Virus record (IMG/VR): IMGVR_UViG_3300042196_000313
Span: 1-28,915 of that record
Strand: one strand, 5' to 3'
DNA from: a virus
Lineage: Duplodnaviria; Caudoviricetes
Length of the DNA stretch: 28,915 bases
Both the position numbers and the translations under genes were made by a program. The notes beneath the pieces are model-generated. The model was not told the origin of the DNA, ran no database searches, and saw only the letters and a program-made list of their open reading frames with translations. Numbering within the stretch: the stretch's first letter is position 1; each line of letters starts with the position of its first letter. Of this stretch, positions 995-20,753 are shown one piece after another.

Positions 995-1100
995 CGCATG
1001 GCGCAAGGCGCATGGCGCATAGCGTCCGGCTTCCGGCCCGGAGGGCTCTCCAGCCCGGAGGGATCCGGCGCTCTGCGCTTAGCGCTCTGCGCTTGGCGCG
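995..1100. repeat. Family A heptamer hairpin (GCGCAWR)n-loop-(YWTGCGC)n containing a 33-nt cassette
   Basis: cgcatggcgcaaggcgcatggcgcatagcg...cgctctgcgcttagcgctctgcgcttggcg; contains the TAA stop of the 1079..1603 gene. Confidence 0.9.
1029..1062 (+). mobile_element. 2x17-nt CCCGGAGGG cassette
   Basis: gcttccggcccggaggg ctctccagcccggaggg; removing 33 nt leaves the loop tccggatccgg. Confidence 0.75.
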
Positions 1101-1603
1101 ATGTGGCGCTCTAACATCCCTCGGAGAATTTCTAAATCCTCCGCCTGCGCCACGAGAAACGGGCGCGCGGGAATCCGGACCAGGCGCTGGTGCTGCCGAA
1201 CGGTGGCGTAGGTCGGCGTCTTGAGGCGCCGGCCGAAGGCCCGCGTCACCCGCCGGACGTGCTCGGGCACCGTCATGTTCCCCGCGAAGCCGAGCTGGTG
1301 GACGGCGGCATAGACCACGTTGGTCCCCAGCCGCAGCGTCCGCGGCCCCGTCACGCTGGCCACGATCGAGTTCTTCAGCCGCGCCGTCTTGATCAACGTC
1401 TTCCCGCCCTGGCGCAGCGCCCGAATCGACGGCGGCCAGGGCGCCGGCCGCCCCCCCGCCTGAAACGTCTGCTCCACGCTCCGCACCATGTGCACACCGA
1501 ACTCCGCCAGGACGGGCCGCAGATCCGAGACCCGGCGGACGATCTCCCGCAGCTCCTTCGACACCTGCTCGATGTTGCGCTGGGTGATCTTCAGACTGAT
1601 CAT
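1079..1603 (-). CDS. Phage virion morphogenesis protein (Mu gpG/gp31-like)
   Basis: Motifs LIKTARLKNSI, GTNVVYAAVHQLG, IPARPFL. Confidence 0.9.
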   Translation of the reverse strand: MISLKITQRNIEQVSKELREIVRRVSDLRPVLAEFGVHMVRSVEQTFQAGGRPAPWPPSIRALRQGGKTLIKTARLKNSIVASVTGPRTLRLGTNVVYAAVHQLGFAGNMTVPEHVRRVTRAFGRRLKTPTYATVRQHQRLVRIPARPFLVAQAEDLEILRGMLERHIAPSAER

Positions 1604-1608
1604 TGAAC

Positions 1609-1718
1609 CGCTCTGCGCAAAGCGCTAAGCGCATGGCCGCCGGCCCGCGAGGGCCTCTGGCCCGGAGGGCGCATGGCGTTCGAATCCGGACGCTACGCGC
1701 TCTGCACTATGCGCTTTG
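1609..1718. repeat. Family A heptamer hairpin with a 33-nt cassette
   Basis: gcgcaaagcgctaagcgcatg[cassette]gcgcatggcg..gaatccgga..cgctacgcgctctgcactatgcgctttgc fills the intergenic gap. Confidence 0.9.
1636..1669 (+). mobile_element. 2x17-nt CCCGGAGGG cassette
   Basis: gccgccggcccgcgagg gcctctggcccggaggg; removal restores gcgcatggcgcatggcg. Confidence 0.8.
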
Positions 1719-2177
1719 CTAGAACCCGTCCAGGCTCCCCACGTCCCCCGTGCTCGGACGGCCGATCGTGAACGTGCGGTCCTCCGAGGAGCGCGACGCC
1801 TCGGGTTGATCGCTGGCGTCCGTGGCCACCTCGCCGCCGCCGGTGGCGGGCAGGACCATGGTGCCCGTGGAAAGGGCCTTCAGCTTCGCGACCGCGTCCT
1901 CGTAATCCTGGCGCCGGCGCTCGTTGCTCATCCCGCGCCGCCCGTAGAGGCGCCAGATGCTGACCGCCACCGAAAGCTGGCGCAGGAGCGCCGGGACCGG
2001 GGAGACCGGCACGGGGTACCGGCTCCCCAGGTACCCGTCGATCTCGGCGTCCGCCTGGGCGATCGCCTCGGTGAGGATCGTGGCGTCCGCCAGCCCGTCC
2101 TGGTTGTCATCCGTGAGCTGGACGAGCTGCGCCGGCGTCAGCAGCTTCTCGATGTCCGCTTGCACACAGTAGGCCAC
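1719..2177 (-). CDS. Head-tail adaptor, Mu gp36-like (DUF1320)
   Basis: GTG start at 2177 with GAGG RBS; AYCVQADI, AIAQADAEIDGYLGSRYPVP, YEDAVAKL. Confidence 0.9.
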   Translation of the reverse strand: MAYCVQADIEKLLTPAQLVQLTDDNQDGLADATILTEAIAQADAEIDGYLGSRYPVPVSPVPALLRQLSVAVSIWRLYGRRGMSNERRRQDYEDAVAKLKALSTGTMVLPATGGGEVATDASDQPEASRSSEDRTFTIGRPSTGDVGSLDGF

Positions 2178-2185
2178 GGTGGCCT

Positions 2186-2264
2186 CGCAGGGCGCATGGC
2201 GCAAAGCGCATGGCGCCGGAGTCCGACGCTATGCGCTCTGCGCTATGCTCTATGCGCTACGCGC
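2186..2264. repeat. Family A heptamer hairpin
   Basis: gcgcatggcgcaaagcgcatggcg ccggagtccga cgctatgcgctctgcgctatgctctatgcgc. Confidence 0.9.
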
Positions 2265-3251
2265 CTAGGTGAGAATCGTATCCTTCCACATGAAGCCGCC
2301 GAATGTGCCAGTGACCACGATGTCCGTCTCCTCGGCGACCTCGTATACGTCCTGATGCTCGGCCGGCTCGCGCCAGGTGCTCGTCCGCCGGACCTGCCCG
2401 TTCTCGTAGGTCACGCGGACCTGGTAGCCGGTGCTCGGCACCTTGAGCCCAGGGCGCATCGGCCGGTAGAACAGGAAGGCCGAACCCTTCCCGGCGTTCG
2501 CCTCCCAGATATTCACTGAGGTGAAGTCTGTCCCGTCCTTCTTCTCGACGGCCGAGCTGTAGATCGCGCCGGCCACCAGGACCTCCTCGATCTGGAAGAG
2601 CGCCGCCAGCACATTGGGCGTGATGATCGCCCGCTCCACATAGGCGATCCGGTTTTGCACGGCCGTGACTTGCCGGACCGCGCTGAAGGTGTTGCCCGAG
2701 AGCGCCAGGACGTTCGGCCGGCGGCCGATGGCGCTCCGAATCGTCTCGATCCGGGTCTCGACATCCCCGACGAAGGTGTTGGTCGCGTCGTTGGGGGCCC
2801 AGAGTCCGGCGGCGTCTTCCCCGCCGGCACCGGCGCCGGAAAAGTTCGTCGCATTGATCAGCGCGAACATCCGGCGTTCCTTGCTGAGGTCGATGGCATT
2901 GGCGCCGAACTCGATCGCGTCCTGATCAGGCTGGAGCGGCGGCGCCCCTCGCGAGGCGGCGAATCGCCGATCCTCGTCCGGGACCTCCTTGGCGAAGGCG
3001 AATTCCTTTGTCGCCACGTCCACCAGATCGATTGGGTAGCCCCCACGCGGGGCGCGGGCGCCGGGACCGCGAACACCCGCTTCGTCCCGGAACCAGGCTC
3101 CCCGGGCATATCGGGCGATCTTCGACTTGGGATCGGTGGTGTCGATGATCGGAAAGATCCGATCGCCGACGTACTCGGCGTTGCGGAAGGCCACGCTCAC
3201 CTCGCTCAGCGGCCCCGCAACGATCAGCTCTTTCACACTCGGCTGCGCCAT
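2265..3251 (-). CDS. Major capsid protein
   Basis: 328 aa downstream of protease/scaffold and decoration genes; PLSEVSVAFRN, IFPII, GRRPNVLAL; strong RBS. Confidence 0.85.
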   Translation of the reverse strand: MAQPSVKELIVAGPLSEVSVAFRNAEYVGDRIFPIIDTTDPKSKIARYARGAWFRDEAGVRGPGARAPRGGYPIDLVDVATKEFAFAKEVPDEDRRFAASRGAPPLQPDQDAIEFGANAIDLSKERRMFALINATNFSGAGAGGEDAAGLWAPNDATNTFVGDVETRIETIRSAIGRRPNVLALSGNTFSAVRQVTAVQNRIAYVERAIITPNVLAALFQIEEVLVAGAIYSSAVEKKDGTDFTSVNIWEANAGKGSAFLFYRPMRPGLKVPSTGYQVRVTYENGQVRRTSTWREPAEHQDVYEVAEETDIVVTGTFGGFMWKDTILT

Positions 3252-3270
3252 GCTCTCTTCTCCTTTCCGC

Positions 3271-3293
3271 CCTATGCGCTACGTGCGTTGCGC
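3271..3293. repeat. Family A half array (degenerate)
   Basis: cctatgcgctacgtgcgttgcgc upstream of the capsid RBS. Confidence 0.55.
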
Positions 3294-3304
3294 CAGGCGT
3301 TCCG

Positions 3305-3703
3305 TTACGCTTTGACCGTGAGTGGGGTCAACAGGGCGCTGCCGAGCTCATCCTCGGCTCCGCCCGCCAGAAGCACCCCGACGGGATAGCCGGTCGCCAC
3401 GGCGGCGATGGCCTTGCCCGCGTCGCTGGCGGACACATACTCCATCTGGATGATCGCTCCGATCGCCAGCGTCGCGCCGAGCTGCACTTTGCTGATCCCG
3501 CCACAGCCGATAGGCCGGACGACGGCGGCTACATCCGCAGCATTCGGGGCGTTCTGGAGCACGCCAAATGGGATGTCGGTGGCCGCATTCGGTCGGCGTA
3601 CCTTGCCGCTGGTGGCATCCAGGACAACGATTCGGTACTGGTCGTTGCTCAGGTCCTCGTCTGCCGGATAGGGCACATCGAGGACCCTGTTCTCCGTTGT
3701 CAT
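3305..3703 (-). CDS. Head decoration/capsid cement protein (DUF2190-like)
   Basis: ATG at 3703 with AAGGAG RBS; small Gly/Ala-rich protein, FGVLQNAP, GKAIAA; lies between scaffold and capsid. Confidence 0.75.
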   Translation of the reverse strand: MTTENRVLDVPYPADEDLSNDQYRIVVLDATSGKVRRPNAATDIPFGVLQNAPNAADVAAVVRPIGCGGISKVQLGATLAIGAIIQMEYVSASDAGKAIAAVATGYPVGVLLAGGAEDELGSALLTPLTVKA

Positions 3704-3718
3704 TCGCTCTCTCCTTTC

Positions 3719-3793
3719 GCGCAGAGCGCAAAGCGCATGGCGCATGGCGCCGGACGCTCTGCGCTATGCTCTATGCGCTTAGCGTCTAGCGCG
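3719..3793. repeat. Family A heptamer hairpin
   Basis: gcgcagagcgcaaagcgcatggcgcatggcg ccgga cgctctgcgctatgctctatgcgcttagcg. Confidence 0.9.
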
Positions 3794-4412
3794 TGGGCCG
3801 CGCCTCTTCGGCGTATTCCCGCGCCAGATCGGGGTGGGCCTTCTGGATCTCCACGAAGGCCACGTTGTAGTTCACCTTCTGGTCCTGCATGTGCTTCCGG
3901 ACCAGGGCGTCCAGCTTCTCGCCGGCGGACCCGGCGCCCAGGGCCGGGTCGTCTTTCTTCCGCCCGGCGATCTCCTGGAGCGTCACCACCTTGGGCAGCT
4001 CGCCGAAGAAGGCCAGCAGGATCTCTCCGGGGTTCTGTTTCTTCCCTTCGGCGAATTCCATCGGATCCTGGAGCAGGAGCTGCTCGAGGACCGCCGGGAT
4101 CCCTTGCTCCTTCCAGGCCGGCAGGAACGTCCCGGCCTTGATCCCCCCCTCGACGAACACCGTGACCTTCGCCTTGACTTCCGCAGAGCGCATAGCGCTT
4201 AGCGCATGGCGCTCGGCATCGGCGCGCGCGCGCGCGGCGGCGGCCGCTTCCCGCTCCAGGACCTGGGCCTCGGTGAAGGTCGCCGCTCGGCCCTCGCCTT
4301 TCGACTCTGGGCTCTCCTCGCCTGGGATCTTCACGCCCTCCGGGCTGGAAGCCCCTCCGGGCTGGAAGCCCGCCTCGGCGAAGAGCGCCTGCAACTTCTG
4401 CCAGAACGTCAT
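3786..4412 (-). CDS. Scaffolding protein from an internal in-frame start (Mu gpZ-like)
   Basis: In-frame ATG at 4412 preceded by GAGGAGG; mirrors the nested I/Z arrangement of Mu. Confidence 0.65.
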   Translation of the reverse strand: MTFWQKLQALFAEAGFQPGGASSPEGVKIPGEESPESKGEGRAATFTEAQVLEREAAAAARARADAERHALSAMRSAEVKAKVTVFVEGGIKAGTFLPAWKEQGIPAVLEQLLLQDPMEFAEGKKQNPGEILLAFFGELPKVVTLQEIAGRKKDDPALGAGSAGEKLDALVRKHMQDQKVNYNVAFVEIQKAHPDLAREYAEEARPTR

Positions 4413-5117
4413 TGTCTTGCCTCCTCTCTGTTCTCCCCCACCCGTTCCCTCCCCCCGCCGCGGGGGAGGGGCGGGGAGGGGGGGGTCCTCCGATTTCGGA
4501 TTTCGAATTTCGGATTTCGGATTTTCCACAAACATCTCGGCCTCGACCAGGGATCGGAGGGAGTCCACCTGGTCCAGGATGGTCGTCTTCTTGTCGGCGA
4601 TCGCATCGTCGCTGAGGATCCCGTGCACCCGGTCCATGAGCAGGTAGCAGCCGTCGAGCACGCGCATCACCGCGGCCTGGCGGTCGAGGGCTTCGGCGAT
4701 CGGCATATCCAGATCGTGCTGTTCAAATTGCCCTTCCGACCAGCGGATCGGGGTCATGCCCTTGACCGCCGGGATCTCGGCGCCCAGGAAGCCCACGTGG
4801 CGCAGGTAGGGTCCGGAGACGCCCTCCAAGGCCCGATAAATGGCCATGGAGATCTTCTTGAACCGGCCTTCACGGACGGCCTGACGCAGCTCGGGCGCGA
4901 CCTGGCGGACCTTGGCCCAGAGCGTGTCGCCCATTCGGCGCAAGGCCTCGACCCAGCCCACGGCGGGACTGTCGCTGTCCGGGTGGCCCAGGACCAGCGG
5001 CGCCTCGTGCCGCGTGGGATCATAGTTCCGGACCATGGCGTCGAGATCCGCCGGGGCGATCGGCAGCTTCCCCTCGTAATTCCCGATCCGAAAGATCTGG
5101 ATCCAGTCGTGCATCAT
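3786..5117 (-). CDS. Prohead protease with C-terminal scaffold (Mu gpI-like)
   Basis: ATG at 5117; WIQIFRIGNY, APLVLGHP, PAVGWV, YLRHVGFLGAEIPAVKG. Confidence 0.9.
   Translation of the reverse strand: MMHDWIQIFRIGNYEGKLPIAPADLDAMVRNYDPTRHEAPLVLGHPDSDSPAVGWVEALRRMGDTLWAKVRQVAPELRQAVREGRFKKISMAIYRALEGVSGPYLRHVGFLGAEIPAVKGMTPIRWSEGQFEQHDLDMPIAEALDRQAAVMRVLDGCYLLMDRVHGILSDDAIADKKTTILDQVDSLRSLVEAEMFVENPKSEIRNPKSEDPPLPAPPPRRGEGTGGGEQRGGKTMTFWQKLQALFAEAGFQPGGASSPEGVKIPGEESPESKGEGRAATFTEAQVLEREAAAAARARADAERHALSAMRSAEVKAKVTVFVEGGIKAGTFLPAWKEQGIPAVLEQLLLQDPMEFAEGKKQNPGEILLAFFGELPKVVTLQEIAGRKKDDPALGAGSAGEKLDALVRKHMQDQKVNYNVAFVEIQKAHPDLAREYAEEARPTR
4183..4214. repeat. Family A half array in frame in the scaffold
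   Basis: gcagagcgcatagcgcttagcgcatggcgctc encodes ERHALSAMRSA. Confidence 0.8.
4336..4369 (-). mobile_element. 2x17-nt CCCGGAGGG cassette, in frame in the scaffold
   Basis: Perfect tandem ccctccgggctggaagc x2; removal gives LFAEAGVKIPG. Confidence 0.8.
4447..4485. repeat. REP-like GC hairpin CCCTCCCCC..GGGGGAGGG with G-rich tail
   Basis: ccctccccc cgccgc gggggaggg gcggggaggggggg. Confidence 0.7.
4492..4524. repeat. Heptamer array (RATTTCG)x4+
   Basis: gatttcg gatttcg aatttcg gatttcg gattt; encodes NPKSEIRNPKS. Confidence 0.9.
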
Positions 5118-5130
5118 CGCTCCCTTTGGT

Positions 5131-5212
5131 CGCTCTGCGCATGGCGCATAGCGCATAGGGCATAGCGCTCAGAATCCGGCGCTATGCGCTCAGCGCTTTG
5201 CGCTTTGCGCTA
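5131..5212. repeat. Family A heptamer hairpin
   Basis: gcgcatggcgcatagcgcatagggcatagcg..gaatccgg..cgctatgcgctcagcgctttgcgctttgcgc. Confidence 0.9.
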
Positions 5213-5992: not shown

Positions 5993-6006
5993 GGCTCCCT
6001 CCGGTC

Positions 6007-6119
6007 GCAGCTGGCAGCTGGCAGGTTGCAGCTGGCAGCTTCTGATATTTGTTTTCTGCTAGCTGCCCGCCCTCCGGGGCGGAGCCCCCTCCGGGGCGGA
6101 GCCTGCCTGCTGCCCGCTA
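6007..6119. repeat. Family B heptamer hairpin (GCAGCTG)n...(CTGCCNG)n with a 33-nt cassette
   Basis: gcagctggcagctggcaggttgcagctggcagc...ctgctagctgcccg[cassette]ctgcctgctgcccgctag. Confidence 0.85.
6070..6103 (-). mobile_element. 2x17-nt CCCGGAGGG cassette
   Basis: Perfect tandem ccctccggggcggagcc x2; removal restores ctgcccg ctgcctg ctgcccg. Confidence 0.85.
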
Positions 6120-7136
6120 GACCTCCCGTATCGCCTTCGCCGCATTTCCGGCAAAGCCCGGATCCGGCTGGGGGACCGCGCGGCGGCTGGGGCGGATGCC
6201 CTTCGCCTCCGCCTCCTCGATGCTGATCGCCGTCACGGTGCAGCGGCAGTTGAAGCCGTTCGGCGGCCACCACTCGTCCCAGACCGGATCGTCGCGGCGG
6301 GCGATGAAGCCGTCCATGGCGGCGTGCGCCGGGCGGACCCGGTCATCCCCGACGGTGTGGTACTGGAAGAAGGGGAAGGCCTCGGCCACCTCGGGCGCGT
6401 GATACATCTCCCACCGGCCGGCGTTGTAGGCGGTCTGGATGTTGGTATTAAAGACCGTCTCCGCGTGGTACGGGTTGACCGCGGTGATTCCCCCGGCGTC
6501 CGCCGCCTCCTCGAGGCCGGCGAGGAAGTCGCGCATCGTCAGGCCGCGCGCCAGGACCTGGTCCAGCCAGCCCTGGACGACGGCCACGGCCCGCGCCGTC
6601 TCCTGGCCGGCGATCGTGAACGCCCGGGCGCGATAGGCCTCGGTGAGCTGGCCGAAGGCCTGGGTGGTCATGGGGACCTTGTCCCGGAACAGGGCGATGG
6701 CCTCGACGGGATCCAGCGGCTCCAGCTCGACATCGCCAAGCGCAAAGCGCAGAGCGCCTAGCGTCTGAGTCCGGCGCCATGCGCCATGCTCTATGCGCTC
6801 TGCGAAGGCCGTTTCCACGGGCTTCGCAAATCCGAACCCCTGCCCCTCGACCTCGCGGACGACCTGGGCCCGGCCCAGGAGATCCCCGGTCACCATCCCG
6901 GCCACGAGCGCAGAGAGCAGCGTGGCATCCTTGGGCGGGTCGGCCGCCAGCGCATCCAGCGTCGGGCCCACGGATTCCAGGATCACCATGCCGCGCACGA
7001 CATCCAGGATCTGCTCGGCCAGGCGCGCGGTCGCCGCGATCCCCCGGCGCAGCGTCGCCCGGACCAGCGCCTCCGTCTCGCCGGCGATCCGGTCAATGTC
7101 TTCGGCGTACTGCAGAGCGCTTGGCGCAGAGCGCAT
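6117..7136 (-). CDS. Head morphogenesis protein (Mu gpF/gp30, SPP1 gp7 family)
   Basis: RAFTIAG, TNIQTAYNAGRW, DDRVRPAH, WWPPNGFNCRC. Confidence 0.93.
   Translation of the reverse strand: MRSAPSALQYAEDIDRIAGETEALVRATLRRGIAATARLAEQILDVVRGMVILESVGPTLDALAADPPKDATLLSALVAGMVTGDLLGRAQVVREVEGQGFGFAKPVETAFAERIEHGAWRRTQTLGALRFALGDVELEPLDPVEAIALFRDKVPMTTQAFGQLTEAYRARAFTIAGQETARAVAVVQGWLDQVLARGLTMRDFLAGLEEAADAGGITAVNPYHAETVFNTNIQTAYNAGRWEMYHAPEVAEAFPFFQYHTVGDDRVRPAHAAMDGFIARRDDPVWDEWWPPNGFNCRCTVTAISIEEAEAKGIRPSRRAVPQPDPGFAGNAAKAIREV
6735..6804. repeat. Complete family A hairpin in frame in the gpF-like gene
   Basis: Encodes AERIEHGAWRRTQTLGALRFALG; loop tgagtccgg. Confidence 0.88.
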
Positions 7137-7187: not shown

Positions 7188-8485
7188 TTGTCGGTTCGCG
7201 CGAAGGCCCGGTCGAAGGCGGCCTCGTCAAAACCGACCGGGAAGCCATCCGTGCCTCCGCCAAGGCCCGGACCGCTGGGAGCCGGCACCAAGACTTCTTC
7301 GTCCCCCTCGACGTCGGGGACCCCGTAGAGATCTCTCGCGTACCTGGCAGGGATCGGGAGGCCCATGCTCTGGAGATTTCTATCGCGGAATGAGAGGCGC
7401 CATTGATCCATGATGTCCGGTTCGCTCACCGTCTTGGTATGGAACCAGGGCGCGGGGACATCGGCCCCGAAGTTGAAGTCCACGATCCAGCGGATGAGCT
7501 GGTCGCGAATCACTTCGTCTTCCGCATCCGCGTCGGCCTGCACGAAATCTTGACGGACATTCTCTTGGACCTGGCCGAGCGCCAAGCTGCCCGTCTTGCC
7601 CTCCTGGGTCGTCAGGGTCTGGCCCAGGACTGCCTTGGAGATCTCCGCATTCATCAGGTTGATGAAGGGATCATAGACCGCCACCGACGAGGTCCGTTGA
7701 GCCTCGAGCAGCGAGATCTCCAGTGTGTTGGGGATAATGACCGCCTGATCGGTCTGGATGCTCTTCAGAATGTCCAGCAACTTCTGCTGCATGGGTTCAC
7801 CCGCGCCAGGTGGATACTTTCCAATCGGGAGCGGCTGGGCGAAGCGATCCAAAAGAACCACGTAGAACTTGATTCCATGCTTCTTGAACCACCAGGGCCA
7901 GTAGATGGACTGGCCGATCCCCACGCCGTAGGGATTCTCCGGGTCCGCGTCGTACTGTAGGAGCAGGAACTTCCGGTCAGGAAGTTCCTCGCCGTCGATC
8001 ATATTCTGGAGCGTCAGCAGCCGGAGGCGCCCGTCAGCGTCGAAGACAAAGCGGTGCTGGCCGCGCCGGCGGATCTCCATGGGGAGCACGCGACCACTGA
8101 TCACGGACCACATGACCTCGCCCACGGCAAAGCCTTTCAGGACCCCGTCCAGGAGGTCTCGGCGGCAGCGTTCGAATCCCCGGATCCCCAGGATCGCCTC
8201 CTCCACGAAATCCCGGACCTTCTGGTCGGCCGGGTCATCCGACGCGGGCTGGATGTCCCAATCTTTGTTCAGGACCGCCAGGCGCCGGCTCTGGACCACG
8301 GATCGGATGTGGCCGTCCCGCAGCATGTCCTGGTAGATCCGGATGCCCCGGGCCGGCTGCTCGCGCAGGATCTTGTCCGGGTTGGGCAGGGCCGTGAGCC
8401 AGCCGGCGAACAGGTCGATGTCCTTGCGGACCGTCGCCAGCTCGTCCAGGACCGGCTTTCCGGGTGCCTCCGCGAATTGGATCAT
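7142..8485 (-). CDS. Portal protein (Mu gp29, DUF935)
   Basis: DGHIRSVVQSRRLAV, KGFAVGEVMW, GKYPPGA, EISKAVLGQTLTT, GSLALGQV. Confidence 0.95.
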   Translation of the reverse strand: MIQFAEAPGKPVLDELATVRKDIDLFAGWLTALPNPDKILREQPARGIRIYQDMLRDGHIRSVVQSRRLAVLNKDWDIQPASDDPADQKVRDFVEEAILGIRGFERCRRDLLDGVLKGFAVGEVMWSVISGRVLPMEIRRRGQHRFVFDADGRLRLLTLQNMIDGEELPDRKFLLLQYDADPENPYGVGIGQSIYWPWWFKKHGIKFYVVLLDRFAQPLPIGKYPPGAGEPMQQKLLDILKSIQTDQAVIIPNTLEISLLEAQRTSSVAVYDPFINLMNAEISKAVLGQTLTTQEGKTGSLALGQVQENVRQDFVQADADAEDEVIRDQLIRWIVDFNFGADVPAPWFHTKTVSEPDIMDQWRLSFRDRNLQSMGLPIPARYARDLYGVPDVEGDEEVLVPAPSGPGLGGGTDGFPVGFDEAAFDRAFARTDKALSAKRRARSAGGI

Positions 8486-8495
8486 AGGACTCTCT

Positions 8496-8594
8496 TTATC
8501 CGCAGATTACGGCGCCACCCCGGAGGGCGCTCCCTCCGGGGTGGAACCCCCAACGGGGTGGAACCTGCCCCGGAGGGCAGATTTCGCAGATTCA
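8496..8594. repeat. Family C nonamer array (GCAGATTWC) carrying two nested cassettes
   Basis: ttatccgcagattac[66 nt]gcagatttcgcagattca. Confidence 0.88.
8511..8577 (+). mobile_element. Cassette with an inverted second cassette (8532-8565) nested inside
   Basis: ggcgccaccccggaggg cgct[ccctccggggtggaacc cccaacggggtggaac]ctgccccggaggg; compare 13273-13306. Confidence 0.82.
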
Positions 8595-8947: not shown

Positions 8948-10462
8948 TCCGAGAAATCCCGCCGGAACCGCCCGCCCCCGCCCGGTGTAGGCCGTCAGAT
9001 CGGCCGTATCCCGCCGATCCCCGGTCCCCTGGGCCCCCTGGAGGGTCCAGCCCGACCCGGAGGCCGCCTGGCAGGCCAGGGCGCCGGCCCAGAAGTGGTC
9101 GGCGTGACCGGTCTGCTCGGTTTTCTCGGCGTCGAACCGGAAATGGCCGGTGCTGGTCTGGATCCGCTTGACGCTATGCAGGCTGTTCCGCAGGATGGCG
9201 GACGCCGGGATGGCCAGCGTCCGGTCCTCGGCCCGGGCCTTGATGGCACCCGCCAGGACCTCTTTGTTTTGCGCCGTGAAGGTGATCGCCTCGACCCTCC
9301 ATTCCCCGAACCGCTCCTGGGCGGATTCGGCGAGCTGCATCCCGATCCCTGTGGCATCGATGCAGAACCGGCGCACCCCGGGCAGGGCCAGGAGATGGAA
9401 CAGGACCCGCTGCTGGACCCAGAACGGCTGCCGGGCCAGCTCCAGGACCGCCAGGGACCGCAGGACGGCCGCCACCTGGACCATGGGCCAGATGATGGTG
9501 AGGTCGCGCTTCCGCCCGATGTCCACCCCGCCGAAGATCGGCTCGATCGGCCGCAGGTCCTCCAGGATCCCGGGGTCCAGCCCGGGGTCGTGTTTCGTCT
9601 GCAGGTACCGGCGGTGCTGGTCCGTCGCCTCCTCCAGGAGGATCGCCCCCCAGCGCGGCGCGAACTCCAAGTCCTCGACCTCGATGCTGCCGATCAGGTC
9701 GAAGGACAGCCAGGCCGTCGCCTCGTCCAGGAACTCGCACAGGTATTCCTGGGCCCAGGCCTCGTCGTCCCCCAGCGCCTCGCGGAGCTGCTCGGGCGTG
9801 CAGACGTTTCCCTGGTGATCCTTCAGCACCAGACCGCCGGCCAGGGCGTCATAGATCGTGACCTTGCGGCAGGAGTAGTTCGCATCCCCCGCCGCCTGGC
9901 GCCGCGACCAGTCCGTCCAGAGCTCATAGGCCTTGTTCTGCTTGCCCAGGGGCGTCGTCGTCACGCGCAGCCGGAAGCCCCGGGTGATCGTAGGGAAGAG
10001 GGCGGTCCAGATCGCCCGCGAATCCTTGTGCGTGGCGAACTCGTCCAGCAGCACATTGGCCGAATGCCCCCGCGCCGTCGCCGGATTGGCCGGGAGACCG
10101 ATGATCCGCGCGCCCGGAAGCTGGAGAACCTGGCTGGTGAATCGACCCTCCTCGACCGCGTACTCCTCGGTCAGCACGCTGGCCGCGACCCCGATCGCCC
10201 GGGCGTGCATCGCGCCTTTCTCGATCAGCTCCTTGCTGGCTCGCTCGCCGCTGGACAGCCACACCCACGGCTCCCGATGCTTGGCCGCGCCGCGGACGCC
10301 GGCCAGGGCGCTGCCGAAGGATTTCCCGGACTGGCGGCTCCACAGGTCGAAGACGAAGCGGGCCAGGTCCTGGACGGAGGCCTTCTGGTACTCCGTCAGC
10401 GGAATGATCGGCTTCCCCTGTCGCTGTCGCTGTCCCTGTCGGTTCTCAGCTGACAAGGCCAT
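8945..10462 (-). CDS. Terminase large subunit (Mu gp28-like)
   Basis: Walker A SRQSGKS, Walker B VLLDEF, QEYLCEF, nuclease GVDIGRKRD, IDATGIG, HADHFWA; start 10462 inferred from RBS. Confidence 0.95.
   Translation of the reverse strand: MALSAENRQGQRQRQGKPIIPLTEYQKASVQDLARFVFDLWSRQSGKSFGSALAGVRGAAKHREPWVWLSSGERASKELIEKGAMHARAIGVAASVLTEEYAVEEGRFTSQVLQLPGARIIGLPANPATARGHSANVLLDEFATHKDSRAIWTALFPTITRGFRLRVTTTPLGKQNKAYELWTDWSRRQAAGDANYSCRKVTIYDALAGGLVLKDHQGNVCTPEQLREALGDDEAWAQEYLCEFLDEATAWLSFDLIGSIEVEDLEFAPRWGAILLEEATDQHRRYLQTKHDPGLDPGILEDLRPIEPIFGGVDIGRKRDLTIIWPMVQVAAVLRSLAVLELARQPFWVQQRVLFHLLALPGVRRFCIDATGIGMQLAESAQERFGEWRVEAITFTAQNKEVLAGAIKARAEDRTLAIPASAILRNSLHSVKRIQTSTGHFRFDAEKTEQTGHADHFWAGALACQAASGSGWTLQGAQGTGDRRDTADLTAYTGRGRAVPAGFLG
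10417..10441. repeat. Hexamer array (CSCTGT) in frame at the terminase N-terminus
   Basis: cctgtcgctgtcgctgtccctgtcg encodes RQGQRQRQG. Confidence 0.6.
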
Positions 10463-11042
10463 AGACCTCTTCATCGATGATGCGCGCCACGTCCGGCGGC
10501 AGCTCTTTCATGGCCGTCTTCACCTTCTCCGTGATGCGCTGGGCCGCCTGGGTGGCCCGCTCTCGCAGCTCGACCTTGCGCGTTTCGAGCGCGACGAGCT
10601 GGCCGTCCAGATCAAGCTTCTGTTCCTGGAGCCGCTTTCGCTCCCGATCCAGCGCCAGCTTGTCCTCGGCCAGGCCGAGCTTGCGCTGCTGCTGCGCCAG
10701 GCCCACGACGGCCTTGGGGTCGTCGGTCTCCAGGCGCCTGAGCATCAAGAGGCTTAACGCCTCGAGCTTCTGGTCCACCAGCCCGGCCACCTGGTCGGCG
10801 GGGAATAACTGGAGCGACGCGACCAGCTCTTTCATATAGTCCCGCAGCTCCAGGCCGGCCCGCTTCTCGCTCTTCCACCAGGCCCGGTATCGGCCCAGGG
10901 TTGAGATGCCGATGGTCTCCCGCGTCGCCTCCTGCACCGCGGCGGCGATCTTTTCCAGCGTCTGGTTGGCCAGGAACCCCGAGTGGACGACGACCTGCGC
11001 ATCCTCGCTCAGGTCCATGGCCCGGAAGTGGCCCTTGCCCAC
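10446..11042 (-). CDS. Putative terminase small subunit (Mu gp27/DUF3486-like)
   Basis: N-terminal HTH (TLEKIAA..IGISTLGRY), coiled coil, ends IIDEEVYGL; directly upstream of terL. Confidence 0.75.
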   Translation of the reverse strand: MGKGHFRAMDLSEDAQVVVHSGFLANQTLEKIAAAVQEATRETIGISTLGRYRAWWKSEKRAGLELRDYMKELVASLQLFPADQVAGLVDQKLEALSLLMLRRLETDDPKAVVGLAQQQRKLGLAEDKLALDRERKRLQEQKLDLDGQLVALETRKVELRERATQAAQRITEKVKTAMKELPPDVARIIDEEVYGLVS

Positions 11043-12850: not shown

Positions 12851-13324
12851 TTAGCGCTCCTCCGTCACGGTCGAAGATACGAGCCGGTACTGCAGCACCG
12901 CAATCACCCGATCATTCCCCGGGTGGCGCAGGAGGATCCGCGCCGTCTCCCCATCGCGCCCGACGTCGGTCGCGGTAATTTTCCAGCCCTCATAGCCCGG
13001 CGACTCCTCAAACGCCTCGCGCGGCACCCCCTCCCTCGAGGGGCCGCCGGCCCGGAAGGGCCTATGGCCCGGAGGGGAGGGACAGGGTGGGCCGCCGGCC
13101 CGGATGGGCCTCTGGCCCGGAGGGGGGGTGGCGCCGGCCCCGATCGCGGCGGGGAGGGGGGGGATCGCCACCGCGATCAAGGCCAGCACCACGGCGCAGG
13201 GGAGGTGCGCCCTCCGGGCCGGAGGCCCTCCAGGGCCGGAGGCCAGGGGGAACTGTTTTATCCGCAGATTACGGCGCCGCCCCGGAGGGGGCTCTGCCCC
13301 GGAGGGCAGATTTCGCAGATTCAT
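12851..13324 (-). CDS. Hypothetical protein; true start uncertain and N-terminal half largely repeat-derived
   Basis: C-terminus (YEGWKITATDV..VIAVLQYRLV) looks protein-like; hydrophobic VVLALIAVAI; four cassettes in frame. Confidence 0.45.
   Translation of the reverse strand: MNLRNLPSGAEPPPGRRRNLRIKQFPLASGPGGPPARRAHLPCAVVLALIAVAIPPLPAAIGAGATPPPGQRPIRAGGPPCPSPPGHRPFRAGGPSREGVPREAFEESPGYEGWKITATDVGRDGETARILLRHPGNDRVIAVLQYRLVSSTVTEER
13027..13130. repeat. REP-like hairpin interrupted by two cassettes (13043-13076, 13091-13124)
   Basis: Removing 2x33 nt gives CCCCCTCCCTCGAGGGGGAGGGACAGGGTGGGGGGG, like 4447-4485. Confidence 0.78.
13210..13243 (-). mobile_element. 2x17-nt CCCGGAGGG cassette
   Basis: ccctccgggccggaggc cctccagggccggaggc. 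Confidence 0.75.
13259..13323. repeat. Family C nonamer array with one cassette (13273-13306)
   Basis: tatccgcagattac[ggcgccgccccggaggg ggctctgccccggagg]gcagatttcgcagattca. Confidence 0.88.
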
Positions 13325-15109: not shown

Positions 15110-15687
15110 CAGACCTTGGCGCTCATGGCGTCTTGGGATCCGCCCCGGATGGGGCTATGCCCCGGAGGGCGGTTCAATCGTCTGCGCCGGATCGCTTTCA
15201 GCGCCTCCGTGTACCTCCCCACCTGCCCCGCCGTCCGGGGATGGGCCACGCCGGTCGCCCGGCGCGCGATCCCCGCGGCCTCGTCCATCCCGATCTTCAG
15301 CTCCCGCTCCAGGCTGCTCGCGCGCTGAAGCTGCCCAACGGTGGCGATGCGAACGACGTTGGGAGCATGGCGCATAGCGGTAAGCGCATGGCGTTCCGGC
15401 TTCCGGCCCGGTCTCCGACCCGGAGGGGTCTCCGACCCGGAGGGAGGGCTCTCCAGCCCGGAGGGATCCGGCGCTCTGCGCTCTGCGCTCTGCGCTTTGC
15501 CCGTCACCGCATCCAGCACCCGGATCAGCTCGCCATGATCGCATGTGGAGAGCCCGAACCCGGGCACCAGGGCCCGGCCCACCGCCCGGCTCGCCAGCTC
15601 GTAGGCCCTCTCCTGAGTGATCGTTCCGCCCTTGATCAGCAGCGCAAACTTCGCCTTCATCCGATTGTCGCTATCTGAGGGGATCAC
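15109..15687 (-). CDS. GemA/DUF1018-like regulator (start may be 15660)
   Basis: ELIRVLDAV, ATVGQL, YTEALKAI pattern; Mu gene order; three cassettes and a family A hairpin in frame. Confidence 0.55.
   Translation of the reverse strand: MIPSDSDNRMKAKFALLIKGGTITQERAYELASRAVGRALVPGFGLSTCDHGELIRVLDAVTGKAQSAERRAPDPSGLESPPSGSETPPGRRPGRKPERHALTAMRHAPNVVRIATVGQLQRASSLERELKIGMDEAAGIARRATGVAHPRTAGQVGRYTEALKAIRRRRLNRPPGHSPIRGGSQDAMSAKV
15114..15177. repeat. Family D array with a cassette (15136-15169)
   Basis: Removal gives ccttggcgctcatggcgtcttggcggttcaa, matching 21853-21885. Confidence 0.8.
15364..15500. repeat. Family A hairpin with nested cassettes (15399-15465 containing 15411-15444), in frame
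   Basis: Same loop and cassette as 1029-1062 plus gtctccgacccggaggg x2. Confidence 0.9.
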
Positions 15688-15883: not shown

Positions 15884-16254
15884 TACGATTGGCTCTTCCC
15901 TCCGGGCCAGGGGCCCTCGCGGGCCGGCGGCGATCGGAATGCCTCCGCCAACTCCGGCCAGGTCCTCTCCATGGTCTCCATCGCGCTCGCCGACCAGGGA
16001 TCGATGAAACACCGCCCGCTCTGCAGATATTCGACGCGAAGCGCATGGCGCTCTGCGCATGGCGTCCGGATTCCGACGCTATGCCCTATGCGCTCTGCGC
16101 TTGGCGTCGGAAGCCGGCTATCCAGCACCGCCCACCGCCACATGTTCTGGATCGTGGCCCAGGCCTGGGGCCAGCGGAATCGCCGCAGCAGCAGCCCCTG
16201 GATGCTGGCGCTGACGTGCCGATCGAGCGCATAGCTGTCGTCCTGGGAGTACAT
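15883..16254 (-). CDS. Hypothetical protein
   Basis: TGATG-coupled start; carries an in-frame family A hairpin and a cassette. Confidence 0.55.
   Translation of the reverse strand: MYSQDDSYALDRHVSASIQGLLLRRFRWPQAWATIQNMWRWAVLDSRLPTPSAERIGHSVGIRTPCAERHALRVEYLQSGRCFIDPWSASAMETMERTWPELAEAFRSPPAREGPWPGGKSQS
15898..15931 (-). mobile_element. 2x17-nt CCCGGAGGG cassette
   Basis: Reverse complement of 1636-1669 with one mismatch. Confidence 0.8.
16036..16107. repeat. Family A hairpin, in frame
   Basis: gcgcatggcgctctgcgcatggcg tccggattccga cgctatgccctatgcgctctgcgc. Confidence 0.88.
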
Positions 16255-17117: not shown

Positions 17118-17588
17118 TCATCGCCACTCCGTCTCGCCGGCGAGTTGCCACTGGAACTCGTCCTGGCTGTCGCGAGTACAACCGACCTGCTTGAGCTGTG
17201 CGTCCGTCAGCTCCTTCATCGCCACGCGATCCGGCGCCTCCTTCGTCCGCACGCAGTCCTTGTGGCCGTGCTTTTTGAGGAGGGTGACGATCTCGTCGTC
17301 TGTCAGGTCCGAGACGATCGCGTCCGGCGTCTTGTACAGCCGCACGGCCCCATGCATGCCCCGGAGGGTTTTCTGGTCGAGCTCGTCCCGATGCCCGAAC
17401 GTCCACCGTTCGAGCTGGCCCTTCAGACGTTTGAACTCGGCCTTGATGGGCTTCACCACCTTCGCCACGCGGGCCCTGACCTTATCGAGCAGACCGCCCT
17501 CGAAATCCTTCGCGCGCTGGTGCCGTCGCTCCAGCGTGGCCAGCCGCGCCAGCGCCCGATCCACCCCGTCCGTCCCCTCGATCTTCAT
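17118..17588 (-). CDS. gam: Host-nuclease inhibitor, Mu Gam-like
   Basis: VDRALARL coiled coil, KTL..HGAV, CVRTKEAPDR, DEF; Mu gene order. Confidence 0.82.
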   Translation of the reverse strand: MKIEGTDGVDRALARLATLERRHQRAKDFEGGLLDKVRARVAKVVKPIKAEFKRLKGQLERWTFGHRDELDQKTLRGMHGAVRLYKTPDAIVSDLTDDEIVTLLKKHGHKDCVRTKEAPDRVAMKELTDAQLKQVGCTRDSQDEFQWQLAGETEWR

Positions 17589-17991: not shown

Positions 17992-18469
17992 CCAGCTTCT
18001 CCCGGATCTTCGCCAGCTCACCCCTTGCGATCTCGCCCGCGGGCGTCAGGTCGCCCACCGGGCGAGTCGGCTGAGCGCATGGCGCCTTGGGCATAGCGCA
18101 TGGCGCAGAGCGCGTAGCGTCTGACTCTATGCGCTTACCGCTTTGCGCTTGGCGTTCTGCGGGCGCTTCGCGCTTTGCGCCAGAGATGAGTGGATCCCAC
18201 TCCGCCCCCTGCTTCGCCCAGTTCTGGATCCGGGCGCACCAGACCTTCCGCGTCGTCGGCCCCCGGGCGATCCAGTGCGCCCGGCAGGCGGCCAGGGCCG
18301 GGATCAGCCGGATCGCTGGATACGCGAGCAGCAACGACTCGAGGAGCGCGCTAGCCACCTTGTCCTCTTTCCCCAGCCTGTCCTCGCCCCAGCCGAGAAA
18401 CTTCCCCCCATCCTCTCGCATCCACTCAATCGCCTCGCCGATCCGCAGGTCCCTTTCGGCTTTGGTCAT
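17984..18469 (-). CDS. Hypothetical protein with an in-frame family A hairpin
   Basis: 161 aa ORF; AHWIA...RIQNW core. Confidence 0.55.
   Translation of the reverse strand: MTKAERDLRIGEAIEWMREDGGKFLGWGEDRLGKEDKVASALLESLLLAYPAIRLIPALAACRAHWIARGPTTRKVWCARIQNWAKQGAEWDPLISGAKREAPAERQAQSGKRIESDATRSAPCAMPKAPCAQPTRPVGDLTPAGEIARGELAKIREKLGG
18074..18181. repeat. Family A hairpin, in frame
   Basis: gcgcatggcgccttgggcatagcgcatggcgcagagcg...ctatgcgcttaccgctttgcgcttggcg. Confidence 0.85.
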
Positions 18470-18484
18470 GCCGGCCCAGGGTTG

Positions 18485-18513
18485 CTTTGCGTCCTTTGCG
18501 CCTTAGCGAGAGA
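18485..18513. repeat. Family D half array
   Basis: ctttgcgtc ctttgcgcc ttagcgagaga. Confidence 0.7.
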
Positions 18514-18525
18514 CACGTTCCGCTC

Positions 18526-18696
18526 CTACCACCTGACATCGACTTCCCGCCGGCAGCGGTCGCAGCGGTAGTGGAACCGGTGGCCGATCGGGATCCGCTC
18601 ATTCGTCCCCATCCGGATCCGGATGGGCTCGCCGAAGATCACCACCAGCGTCCCCCCACACGGGCAGTCAATCGGATCCCCGTCGCGAAGACTCAC
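18526..18696 (-). CDS. Small zinc-ribbon protein (56 aa)
   Basis: DCPCGG...YRCDRC, translated by hand; AAGGTG RBS. Confidence 0.55.
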   Translation of the reverse strand: MSLRDGDPIDCPCGGTLVVIFGEPIRIRMGTNERIPIGHRFHYRCDRCRREVDVRW

Positions 18697-18738
18697 AGAT
18701 TCACCTTATCCGCAGATTACGCAGATTACGCAGATTTC
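18695..18738. repeat. Family C nonamer array, empty (no cassette)
   Basis: ttatccgcagattac gcagattac gcagatttc. Confidence 0.9.
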
Positions 18739-18955
18739 AAGAGCCGATCCCCAGCTCGCGATCCTTGGGGCTCCATCCCCGCTCTTCCCACGCGCTGGCG
18801 TTGGTCGGGCCTGGTCCCTCCCCGTTATTCCCACGTTTTGCGCTCTGCTCTATGCGCTCTGCGCTTGCCCCGGCAGATACTGCTGCCATCAGCAGTACGC
18901 CCAAATTGAACCCCAGGACCAGCGCCCCACCGATCGCCCACCACACCCAGCCCAT
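18737..18955 (-). CDS. Small membrane protein
   Basis: WWAIGGALVLGFNLGVLLMAAVSAG; GGAGGGG RBS; in-frame family A array at 18837-18868. Confidence 0.65.
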   Translation of the reverse strand: MGWVWWAIGGALVLGFNLGVLLMAAVSAGASAERIEQSAKRGNNGEGPGPTNASAWEERGWSPKDRELGIGS

Positions 18956-18970
18956 GATTCCCCCCTCCGT

Positions 18971-19002
18971 CGCTATGCGCTTGGCGCTCTGCGCTTTGCG
19001 CT
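18971..19002. repeat. Family A half array
   Basis: cgctatgcgcttggcgctctgcgctttgcgct, intergenic. Confidence 0.85.
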
Positions 19003-19169
19003 CAAGGTGTCACGCCTGTGGCGTGCAACACCATGAGCAACCAGGCCAGGCCGGCGCCCAGCGCGATCGACCCGACCCACCACGCGATCTCCCCCACCGC
19101 CCGGACCCAGCGCCTCGGTGTCGGCGTCCATCCCTCAATCCCATACGGCAGCTCCACCCGGCGCCTCAC
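19002..19169 (-). CDS. Small membrane protein (55 aa)
   Basis: GTGA overlap with the upstream stop; TM segment IAWWVGSIALGAGLAWLLMVL; translated by hand. Confidence 0.55.
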   Translation of the reverse strand: MRRRVELPYGIEGWTPTPRRWVRAVGEIAWWVGSIALGAGLAWLLMVLHATGVTP

Positions 19170-19360
19170 CAATTCTCCTTTATCCGCTGCCGCCGGAGCA
19201 GCTCGCGGCTGACGGCGATCAATCGTGTCTTGCCGAATGGCTGGGTCTTCAGGACCTTCAGGGCCCGCCGGAGCTGGCCGAGGTTGGCCTGCTCCAGCGC
19301 GCTCTTGTAGTTCACGTCGTCCGCGGGCACCCGGATCAGGCAGTCATACACCCAGCTCAT
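19166..19360 (-). CDS. Small hypothetical protein
   Basis: MSWVYDCL...; ATGA overlap with the DUF5131 stop. Confidence 0.6.
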   Translation of the reverse strand: MSWVYDCLIRVPADDVNYKSALEQANLGQLRRALKVLKTQPFGKTRLIAVSRELLRRQRIKENW

Positions 19361-20238
19361 CGCGCCCCCTCCCTCTGCGCCCTCTGGGGCGGAACCCCAT
19401 CCGGGGCGGAGCCCATGCGCTCGGCGCTTTGCGGGAATTCGTCCCAGGTCCGCCCATCCAGCAGCCGGCCCCCCGAATTCGGACGCGGCCCGCCCCACTG
19501 CTTCATGAAGAACGGCACCTCGGCGGCCACGCATTGGTCGCGGATCGAGCGGACCCATTCGAGGGCTTCTTCCTTGGGATACCAATGTCCATGCTTAGGC
19601 AGGCCACACATCCGGTGTTCCGCGAGCGACCTCTCCGCCGAGCCGCCGCTCTCCCCGCCGACGATGACCCAGTCCACAGGGGGGATCCAAGCTGAGTGCT
19701 CCTCGTCGCCCAGATCGACCTCCTGGAATTCGTCGTCAAGATTCGCGAACGGTCCGAGCAGCGGTTCGATGGAGAGAAAATGGACGGCTGCGCCGACCAT
19801 GTGATCACGAAACCCTCCGGCCTTGTCGAGATCCTCCTGGATGGAGACGCTGAGCCCCAGCCAGACGTTCGGCAGCATCGGCTCCCGATGGAAGGCCCAG
19901 GGCACGCAGTCGCGATGGCGCTCCGTGCGCTTGCTCGGGATCAGGTATGTCTGCCAGGGCGTCCGCCGCATGATCTCCCAGGCCTCGGCCCGCCAGGGGT
20001 CCGCCTCTTCAATGAAGAAGTCCGACCAGGAGCAGACGAAGATGCGCTTCGGCTCTTTCCAGGTCAGCGGCGCGTTGAATGTCGCCGGCTTCGACCGGAC
20101 GATCGTCGCGGGATCCTGGCCGTACATCCTCTTCTCTCGATACATGTAGCAGTGCGCGCAGCCCGTGGACACCTTCCGGCAGCCCTGCCAGGGATTCCAC
20201 GTCGCGTCACACCACTCGATCTTGCTAGCCTTGCCCAT
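19357..20238 (-). CDS. DUF5131 / phage Gp37-Gp68 family (radical-SAM-like)
   Basis: SKIEWCDATWNPWQGCRKVSTGCAHCY, FLSIEPLLG, DWVIVGGESG, FFMKQWGG. Confidence 0.95.
   Translation of the reverse strand: MGKASKIEWCDATWNPWQGCRKVSTGCAHCYMYREKRMYGQDPATIVRSKPATFNAPLTWKEPKRIFVCSWSDFFIEEADPWRAEAWEIMRRTPWQTYLIPSKRTERHRDCVPWAFHREPMLPNVWLGLSVSIQEDLDKAGGFRDHMVGAAVHFLSIEPLLGPFANLDDEFQEVDLGDEEHSAWIPPVDWVIVGGESGGSAERSLAEHRMCGLPKHGHWYPKEEALEWVRSIRDQCVAAEVPFFMKQWGGPRPNSGGRLLDGRTWDEFPQSAERMGSAPDGVPPQRAQREGAR
19372..19433. repeat. Family A half array with a cassette (19380-19413)
   Basis: Removal restores ctctgcg ccatgcg ctcggcg ctttgcg. Confidence 0.85.
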
Positions 20239-20261
20239 CCCGTCCACCTGGTGGGGAAAAG

Positions 20262-20299
20262 GCCCCGGAGGCCGCCGAGTTTGTGTTCCCCTCCGGGGC
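20262..20299 (-). terminator. GC hairpin, possible weak terminator
   Basis: gccccggagg...cctccggggc, followed by CTTTT on the minus strand. Confidence 0.35.
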
Positions 20300-20445
20300 A
20301 TCTGCCATCATGTGGGGCAGTCGGAATTCCGTCCCGGCCCCTACGGTGCATCTCCTGACGTAAGACACCTTTCGGCCCAGGTGCCCCTGGCGTTCGCAGT
20401 CCAGCGCTGTCGGCGATCAGCCTGCGAAGCTAACCCATGTCCGCG

Positions 20446-20694
20446 TCAGGCGGGCGATTCCAAGACTCCACCACCCCTTCGTGGGATTCCTCGATGTCGT
20501 TTCTTCGCTGCCTTGCCTGCAACGGGTGCGCCCAGCATCGGCTCGATCTGGATCGAAAGCATCCGGCCAATCGGAAACGCCCCGGCAACGTCGAGCGAGG
20601 TCACAAGGGCCACTACGATGTTGGCGCAATCGACCACGATCGAAGTCTGGCCTTTAATCTTTCGATTGGCGACCACCGTCCCGCAGAGATACAT
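20446..20694 (-). CDS. Small beta-rich hypothetical protein
   Basis: 82 aa ORF in operon orientation. Confidence 0.5.
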   Translation of the reverse strand: MYLCGTVVANRKIKGQTSIVVDCANIVVALVTSLDVAGAFPIGRMLSIQIEPMLGAPVAGKAAKKRHRGIPRRGGGVLESPA

Positions 20695-20753
20695 CGCTGC
20701 CCCTGTCGCCCGCCGGGCCGGAGGCCACTCTGGGCCGGAGGCTATCCCTGCCG
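20695..20753. repeat. Hexamer array with a cassette (20709-20742)
   Basis: Removal gives cgctgc ccctgt cgctat ccctgc, like 10417-10441. Confidence 0.7.

Follow-up and report, generated by a model that had tools for sequence, protein, structure and literature searches.

The short element and its copies in the window

The window analysed here is a virus record of 28,915 bases. It carries Mu-type genes (transposase, transposition protein, Gam, terminase, portal, protease and capsid) and its gene junctions are packed with heptamer and 9-mer arrays (86 tandem-repeat rows). Scattered through it are 16 copies of a 33-nt insert made of two 17-mer units, all of them found where an earlier reading, made from the sequence alone, had placed them, and in the same strands (Table 1). 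As argued below, we regard it as probable (around 0.6) that this insert is the gene-less, joined-end derivative of a 264-320-nt element coding for a GIY-YIG nuclease, moved in trans by the nuclease in the phage's host.

A doubled-17-mer scan of the window gave 15 matches when up to 5 mismatches were allowed, two of them pieces of the nest at 8511, and 19 when 6 were allowed, compared with 0.0 and 0.05 respectively in 40 order-3 Markov sequences. Measured from G to G, the 14 intact copies span 34 nt, and the two interrupted ones have the same span once the nested copy is removed. As proposed before, deletion of 33 nt restores the flanking pattern, with empty paralogues in the window itself, and 13 of the 16 copies lie inside repeats, those at 4336, 13210 and 15898 not clearly so. 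The absence of terminal inverted repeats holds for perfect ones, but the two halves are imperfect inverted repeats, matching at as many as 14 of 16 positions. Contigs of run X1 cross nine copies (8511/8532, 13043, 13091, 13210, 13273, 15136 and 15399/15411) as well as 15898 with zero differences, which excludes an assembly slip, and an artefact of assembly was rejected, although X1 is possibly the source sample and the comparison is not independent. A 33-nt joint was not seen among the joints listed from three runs.

Table 1. Copies of the short element, empty sites and related features; positions refer to the window unless locus handles are given
Feature	Position	Strand	Remarks
33-nt copy	1029..1062	+	centre of heptamer cassette; extra base in loop 3
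33-nt copy	1636..1669	+	in heptamer array; empty junction exactly twice elsewhere in window
33-nt copy	4336..4369	-	in frame, 11 codons, head maturation protease gene; orthologous empty site in L143
33-nt copy	6070..6103	-	in heptamer array; both halves equal long GIY-YIG element ends; filled too in related phage G001
33-nt copy	8511..8577	+	in 9-mer cassette; broken by second copy
Nested copy	8532..8565	-	at central G, loop 3 of host copy, opposite strand
33-nt copy	13043..13076	+	in REP-like hairpin
33-nt copy	13091..13124	+	second copy in the same REP-like hairpin as 13043
33-nt copy	13210..13243	-	found by doubled-17-mer scan
33-nt copy	13273..13306	+	in 9-mer cassette; halves one edit from long-form ends
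33-nt copy	15136..15169	+	in 9-mer repeat; right half equals a long-form end
33-nt copy	15399..15465	+	twin of 1029; broken by second copy
Nested copy	15411..15444	+	at central G, loop 2 of host copy; each half one edit from 77-aa long-form ends
33-nt copy	15898..15931	-	most diverged, 6 mismatches
33-nt copy	19380..19413	-	heptamer array in 3' tail of phrog_2045 open reading frame
33-nt copy	20709..20742	-	hexamer array; halves 1 and 0 edits from long-form ends in G169 (L405)
Empty paralogue	18706..18737	+	cassette that is filled at 8511 and 13273
Empty paralogue	21867..21887	+	site that is filled at 15136
Mu-type head maturation protease open reading frame	3786..5156	-	holds in-frame copy; phrog_976, E 5.5e-63
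Junctions with swapped cassettes	8485-8590, 5995-6115, 10418-10495, 6940-6995		comparison with L145, L143
tRNA-like-flanked GIY-YIG loci	L238-L240, L244, L253, L257-L265, L270, L274-L276

Anatomy and length of the short form

Four arms alternate with single bases in the order G, arm, C, arm, G, arm, C, arm, G, each arm being a 2-bp stem with a 3-nt loop. All four loops have 3 nt in the 32-nt form, and the 33-nt form has one extra central base; rare one-unit and three-unit forms also exist. The bases paired within the arms covary: among 152 distinct sequences, the outer pair is kept in 141 for arm 1 (shuffle mean 72), 149 for arm 2 (127), 85 for arm 3 (55) and 151 for arm 4 (126), counts that come from related sequences and are not probabilities. 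Loops 2 and 3 are complementary in 54 of the 152, against 31 by chance. A single long hairpin across the whole element was rejected, because its non-loop pairs score below shuffles.

Regarding the length, the claims of a fixed insert and of frame preservation as a defining trait had to be given up, because they hold only inside the window and the 32-nt form is common in other genomes. Of 227 copies, 189 measure 34 nt and 38 measure 33 nt from G to G, a proportion biased by first scans that selected for 34 nt; in the unbiased list of 100 rows from one genome (G006), sorted by hand, the 32-nt form accounts for 55, the 33-nt form for 35, and the remaining 10 are nested or of other kinds. The 33-nt form is commoner among copies in an open frame (46/147 vs 3/28, p = 0.037, with many spurious frames in the set), in agreement with selection acting once a copy is in place.

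Filled and empty sites

In the protease of a related phage (L143, 81% identity) exactly the 11 codons inserted at 4336 are absent and one G is kept. A host mini-repeat in three genomes occurs both filled and empty, at least 23 empty copies (counted by hand) appearing as split matches that share exactly one base, a G. The earlier reading is supported as regards filled and empty alleles, and also as regards a single shared G at the junction with no multi-base target duplication. For 46 of the 150 junctions in the loci compared, an empty counterpart with one G exists elsewhere, often within a repeat array or another copy. Empty sites contain no unit at all. Filled host repeats are amplified as units, and the same site of one host repeat is occupied by different sequence and length variants. 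The view of a non-autonomous insert, far smaller than a miniature inverted-repeat transposable element (MITE) and precise at one G, also stands, and the window holds no mobiliser.

Some copies of the host mini-repeat (G011:C257, C109 and C476; G012:C172) are 30-35 bases longer than the filled query, which suggests further micro-inserts of other families.

Spread and targets of the short form

The 33-nt pattern was found in 17 viral stretches and at 125 genome loci from 17 of the 64 parts of the collection, although about nine of these loci, with unpaired arms, look by eye like chance. The carriers are mostly Desulfobacterota, together with NC10, Patescibacteria, Nitrospirae, Planctomycetota, Verrucomicrobia and one archaeon. 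In one class, the short form is present in 19 of 68 genomes with 1-101 copies each and zero control matches. Copies sit in unrelated single-copy genes and in many unrelated repeat types, and those in genes run in both orientations.

In-frame copies were observed in housekeeping genes (L058, L024, L096, L174 and L182), a helicase (PF09369) and a family B polymerase (PF00136) among them; the set presumably includes TsaD-like, PilB-like and CysRS-like genes too. In G766, nine of ten matches lie inside 110 kb (C1:4298698-4407008; L433, L436-L443), and the eight contexts listed there are all nested at loop 2 of another copy, one of them with three units.

The junctions of short copies show a weak Y-R-G-A-R bias. 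Hairpin loops hold 20 of 195 junctions against 2.8% of control G's (about 4-fold) and tandem arrays 32 of 195 against 0.9% (about 18-fold), and tolerance of intergenic DNA could add to this enrichment. The earlier idea of targeting by structure and not by sequence is therefore only partly upheld: the enrichment speaks for it, but hairpins and arrays together cover just 51 of the 195 junctions, the sequence bias exists, and the long form keeps to fixed codons with none of its 67 targets in hairpins. The element is also its own target, since removal of a copy regenerates a further copy at 26 of 224 junctions; in 18 of these cases the site is the central G of loop 2 or loop 3, and loops 1 and 4 are never hit.

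The long form carries a GIY-YIG gene

The long element has a sole gene, for a 77-100-aa Slx1/UPF0213-like GIY-YIG nuclease. The first one appeared in G006 as a GIY-YIG match adjoining a lone right unit, a single coordinate overlap. At that locus, L219, a left unit, a 77-aa PF01541 open reading frame (ORF) and a right unit span 268 nt from G to G, with the stop codon within the right unit; the element lies inside a four-helix-bundle gene, which reads through once the element is removed. Seven further genomes of the class have the same layout. The eight end-bearing copies are the top-ranked matches in the 68 genomes, interleaved with a few end-less matches at 43-49% identity. A profile gave 16 matches of at least 88 bits, nine with both ends and 15 with at least one end by pattern (seven of the eight outside the profile-building set have at least one end). 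None of the 42 lower matches has ends by pattern, the two exceptions (L405 and L419) having them on the other strand. In this pair (G169:C380) the nuclease gene is opposite to the G-bearing strand, and one contig carries two such elements, each at the same site of a repeat. The 20 regions with the strongest generic GIY-YIG matches showed no ends where the motif search found the ORF.

A DNA pattern that combined both ends with a Pro-Trp codon pair derived from the nuclease protein found 120 metagenome loci in 41 of 64 parts, which reduce to 101 distinct junctions. The nuclease is present in 81 of these, and the other 20 look like chance. The outer base, left free by the pattern, is G in 68 of 68. 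Regarding the hosts of the 81 long copies, 67 have four-helix-bundle motifs, 8 are IS5-like and 6 are other or unclear; a Pfam check of 26 of the 149 host halves gave 17 PF05635, 5 DDE or DUF772 and 4 none. All 75 long copies with a classified host lie in its sense direction, and the host halves are mostly intact (44/48).

The PF01541 proteins scanned are single-domain and 77-92 aa long. Residues Y4, Y15, R25 and E61 are kept in 66-68 of 68 nuclease proteins; the SsnA counterparts given in the accessible text of PMC11893778 are Y6, Y17 and E64. A structure model reached a pLDDT of 94, and the closest structures and sequences are UPF0213, At-HIGLE and Slx1 (PDB 1zg2, 1ywl, 6seh, 7wme). In a quick tree, 16 rows of which are labelled by score, 73 end-bearing proteins cluster together with one that lacks ends (SH-aLRT 88), and a second group contains another five. 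The end type follows the target codon and, in this tree, the nuclease clade (SH-aLRT 98 for the TC/GA-arm group). Sister clades of the small GIY-YIG gene lie between duplicated tRNA-like fragments and not between mini-arm ends (Table 1); these loci are possibly other mobile cassettes.

Mobility of the long form

Long elements that are 0.5-3% apart in the nuclease gene sit, each at one G, in four-helix-bundle host genes that are 18-45% apart, with saturated synonymous sites (pairs such as L342/L346 and L306/L355 have near-identical nucleases in distant hosts). Flank co-conversion was not found at the junctions compared, where synonymous differences reach the junction. In 11 pairs the third-position mismatch is 0.82 two bases from the junction, 0.61 within 9 nt of it and 0.49 at 22-45 nt; in a group of 7 pairs it is 0.38 within 9 nt, which leaves very short conversion tracts possible there, and 0.55 at 22-45 nt. 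Near-identical copies in distant hosts without co-conversion of the flanks argue for precise insertion rather than homing, and they indicate that the long form was inserted recently, repeatedly and cleanly.

Link between the two forms

Both forms are bounded, precisely at one G, by the same 16/17-nt two-arm units. The ends of L219, once joined, give a short copy that exists in L003 and in G006, and the window copies at 6070 and 20709 match long ends in a similar way (Table 1). Both halves are within two edits of long ends in 69 of the 152 distinct short sequences and in 6 of the 14 intact window copies. There is also a modest co-occurrence: 5 of the 8 genomes that carry the long form have short copies, against 14 of the 60 that do not carry it (p = 0.034), a comparison that ignores kinship and draws on incomplete genomes.

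Under our preferred reading, the nuclease would bind the paired mini-arms of single-stranded or extruded DNA and cut at the outer G of each end. It would also cut the target at a G, preferring a C-R-G-A-G setting like that of the element's own inner loops, and a host ligase or a repair step might then join the ends without copying the flanks, leaving a single G. Short copies also multiply when they insert into one another and when the host repeats that carry them are amplified. Two properties of related enzymes are reported: SsnA, a small GIY-YIG enzyme, is able to cleave single-stranded DNA next to the hairpin that belongs to it (PMC11893778), and a different GIY-YIG enzyme leaves a one-base overhang (PMC2630997).

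Several observations weigh against this derivation. Only 2 of 127 distinct 34-nt sequences (L405 left out) are within one mismatch of an abutted pair of ends, and for the commonest short subfamily a long counterpart occurs in a single genome, with no close relative in 401 genomes. No such nuclease gene was detected in the phage, two viral scans gave no long form (their single match is chance) and the end-bearing nuclease was not found in five copy-bearing genomes (G008, G011, G012, G013 and G766). Short copies are missing from three of the eight genomes that carry the long form, and the restriction to fixed codons is a trait of the long form that the short one does not share. In 12 folds, short copies were no more stable than shuffles (z -0.8 to 1.0), so the arms would need a protein, or loop effects missing from the folding model. 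Distances between hosts and distances between nucleases show a partial correlation (Mantel rho 0.53 and 0.31), as a result of target preference or of some vertical descent. Finally, GIY-YIG enzymes hydrolyse DNA, and we know of no joining activity in them.

Which process moves the element?

The sequence-only reading suggested HUH/RAYT, IS110 and reverse transcriptase genes as candidate mobilisers. None is physically linked at the loci compared, and a GIY-YIG gene is linked instead. The search for an autonomous gene beside ordinary copies was given up, as the 62 neighbours of 30 copies are housekeeping or unknown genes, and six-frame clustering returned just repeat-derived peptides and ordinary orthologues. 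Co-occurrence at the family level is uninformative (PF01797 in 64, PF05635 in 66 and PF01541 in 67 of the 68 genomes). A different enzyme acting in trans, either an HUH/Y1 transposase or some strand-transfer protein not yet known, could move the ends, the GIY-YIG protein being cargo that cuts empty sites and so favours filled ones, like TnpB in IS200/IS605. Y1 transposases give precise, scar-free insertion with hairpin ends, PF01797 is widespread in the class, as just said, and copy-rich genomes can be without the nuclease; but there are no transposases among the 62 ORFs and no recurrent neighbour family, the GTAG/CGTC tag is absent from the ends of the short sequences, end type and target codon track the nuclease clades, and the co-conversion expected from cutting plus repair is missing. 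We consider this an unlikely explanation. Homing is improbable too: the long form would be a free-standing endonuclease gene that cuts a site and is copied into it by gene conversion, and the short form would be a passive relic, multiplied solely through recombination between repeats. The concentration of long copies at conserved codons of one gene family, the amplification of filled host repeats as units and the different repeat cassettes at orthologous junctions of related phages agree with it, whereas the synonymous differences that extend to the junction, the short copies in unrelated single-copy genes and repeat types, and the varied sequence and length variants at the same site of one host repeat do not.

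Both forms might also be cut from transcripts and reinserted by a reverse transcriptase, possibly aided by the four-helix-bundle proteins. The sense direction of the classified long copies, their mostly intact host halves and the complementarity of loops 2 and 3, through which the ends could pair, would suit such an RNA route. However, the short copies in genes have no preferred orientation, the pairs of a long helix do worse than shuffles once the loops are set aside, recent arrival accounts for the intact hosts, and the window has zero matches above the Rfam gathering score; we hold this route to be very improbable. Local tandem duplication, or host regulatory sites that do not move at all, is hardly credible. 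Two direct repeats can slip, and one-unit and three-unit forms do exist, but the empty sites without any unit already contradict it, and the same element is found in many phyla, in both orientations, nested, and in a patchy way within a class.

The derivation of the short form from a GIY-YIG element thus remains our preferred reading. A wider claim, to which we give slightly less than an even chance, is that this is a new prokaryotic class of insertion sequence, in which a 77-residue Slx1-like GIY-YIG nuclease is the whole transposase and places a 270-nt element, or the 32/33-nt derivative formed from its joined ends, at a single G with no need of homology, being the first identified mover of an SDR-type micro-element.

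Comparison with known systems

Among the closest known systems is Ssn/SRM, where a single-domain GIY-YIG gene (less than 150 aa) has its own flanking hairpin repeats and there are many gene-less repeat copies (cd10448; Chenal et al. 2025, PMC11893778); its authors remark that the layout resembles that of an IS and put forward an origin from mobile DNA. The ends described here differ in being 16/17-nt units of 2-bp arms, the gene-less form consists of both ends joined, and precise recent insertion is seen through filled and empty sites, which are absent from the parts of the Ssn paper available. The SRM motif was found in none of 160 short sequences and none of 81 long ends, although it is not fully sensitive (it matched three restored host hairpins and missed the flank of L237). 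Those three are hairpins broken, ten bases in, by short copies (L049, L070 and L124). The protein appears closer to UPF0213/Slx1. L247 aligns over 28 residues only to L237, which we take to be of the Ssn type, and its best PDB matches are UPF0213 and Slx1. UPF0213, Slx1 and At-HIGLE are the best matches in sequence and fold, and Slx1 cuts branched DNA, but these hits are not reported as parts of mobile elements.

In behaviour, the element resembles SDR1-8 of the Nostocaceae, which are also very small, insert precisely and nest in repeats and in themselves. Elhai et al. reportedly described them in 2008 as 21-27 nt long, with covarying structure and nesting in heptamer arrays and in themselves. 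The present element has 32/33 nt, belongs to other phyla and has a candidate gene-bearing parent. Among the Nostocaceae SDRs, which are cited in the accessible text of three papers (PMC5861425, PMC4390886, PMC3116915), SDR5 inserts between bases 3 and 4 of HIP1 (PMC4390886).

REP/REPIN-RAYT systems share the pairing of an autonomous and a non-autonomous form, structured ends, a doublet of units and occasional in-frame inserts, as far as the available text of PMC3116915 and PMC3733652 goes. The partner here is a GIY-YIG protein and not an HUH tyrosine transposase, and there is no long stable stem. A match to a described REP/BIME family, which the earlier reading had named among the results that would overturn it, did not appear: the GTAG or CGTC tag was found within six bases of the end in 0 of 160 short sequences, no Y1 gene is among the 62 neighbouring ORFs (81 of the 101 end-bounded stretches hold GIY-YIG), and none of the 12 folds contains a stem-loop more stable than shuffles. 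Like MITEs, the short form would be an internal-deletion derivative made of two ends, moved in trans, with ends common to a gene-bearing element. However, MITEs of DDE insertion sequences have 70-300 bp and inverted repeats of 15-30 bp, according to the text available of PMC3733652, whereas the present insert does not reach half of that lower size limit, has imperfect inverted ends, shares a single G with its target and has a PF01541 partner that is not DDE.

Regarding homing genes of the I-TevI/Seg type, the long form alone shares with them a GIY-YIG gene at conserved codons of a host gene family, with 67 four-helix-bundle and 8 IS5-like sites among the 81. It differs by having no DNA-binding domain, structured ends, no co-conversion of flanks and a gene-less derivative at non-homologous sites. 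Taken together, its mode of working is that of an Ssn/SRM or RAYT/REPIN pair and its behaviour that of an SDR, and it fails tested features of the Ssn, REP, DDE-MITE and homing families. Our literature search gave no description of it or of a GIY-YIG insertion sequence in four-helix-bundle genes, most subscription papers, including the SDR original and the Ssn supplements on SRM-flanked homologues, being outside its coverage.

What is new here is the link of the 32/33-nt element to the long-form ends, the two length classes and the co-conversion test. Bacterial repeats of 20-40 nt have so far had no named enzyme for the spread of elements of this size, and a testable pair is now supplied: a 77-residue nuclease, with 16/17-nt ends that are defined and targets that are known, and a derivative that lacks the gene and occurs in filled as well as empty alleles. 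If it is the nuclease that drives insertion, transposition chemistry would extend beyond the DDE, DEDD, HUH, tyrosine and serine classes, this would be one of the smallest autonomous elements, and it would give comparative support to the mobile origin proposed for the Ssn nucleases. The window also gives the example of a phage that collects copies from its host, 16 in this case, and a virion protease has become 11 residues longer through one of them.

Other features of the window and its relatives

A capsid-protein search of 201 genomes of the class of G010 found no prophage, and further phage relatives sought through MuB and through the nuclease in viral contigs were not found either. The related phage G001 has another cassette at 8485-8590, and because of that difference it does not offer a clean empty allele there.

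Inverted heptamer-array cassettes occupy most junctions throughout the window (for example 995-1099, 2186-2264 and 18074-18180), and they also lie within parts of ORFs, namely the protease, the head morphogenesis gene and the MuA and MuB termini. Phages that are 80-88% identical have different cassettes (heptamer, 9-mer or REP-like) at orthologous gene junctions (Table 1), which points to the swapping of whole cassettes, some of them inside coding frames. The head morphogenesis ORF of L144 holds a long in-frame insert with Cys at its start and His-Asn at its end before Cys, which we presume to be intein-like. A lone right-arm 9-mer in the Gam gene (17360-17368) and an inverted pair of partial arms in the phrog_2045 region (20261-20300) may be due to chance or may be decayed copies of the element.

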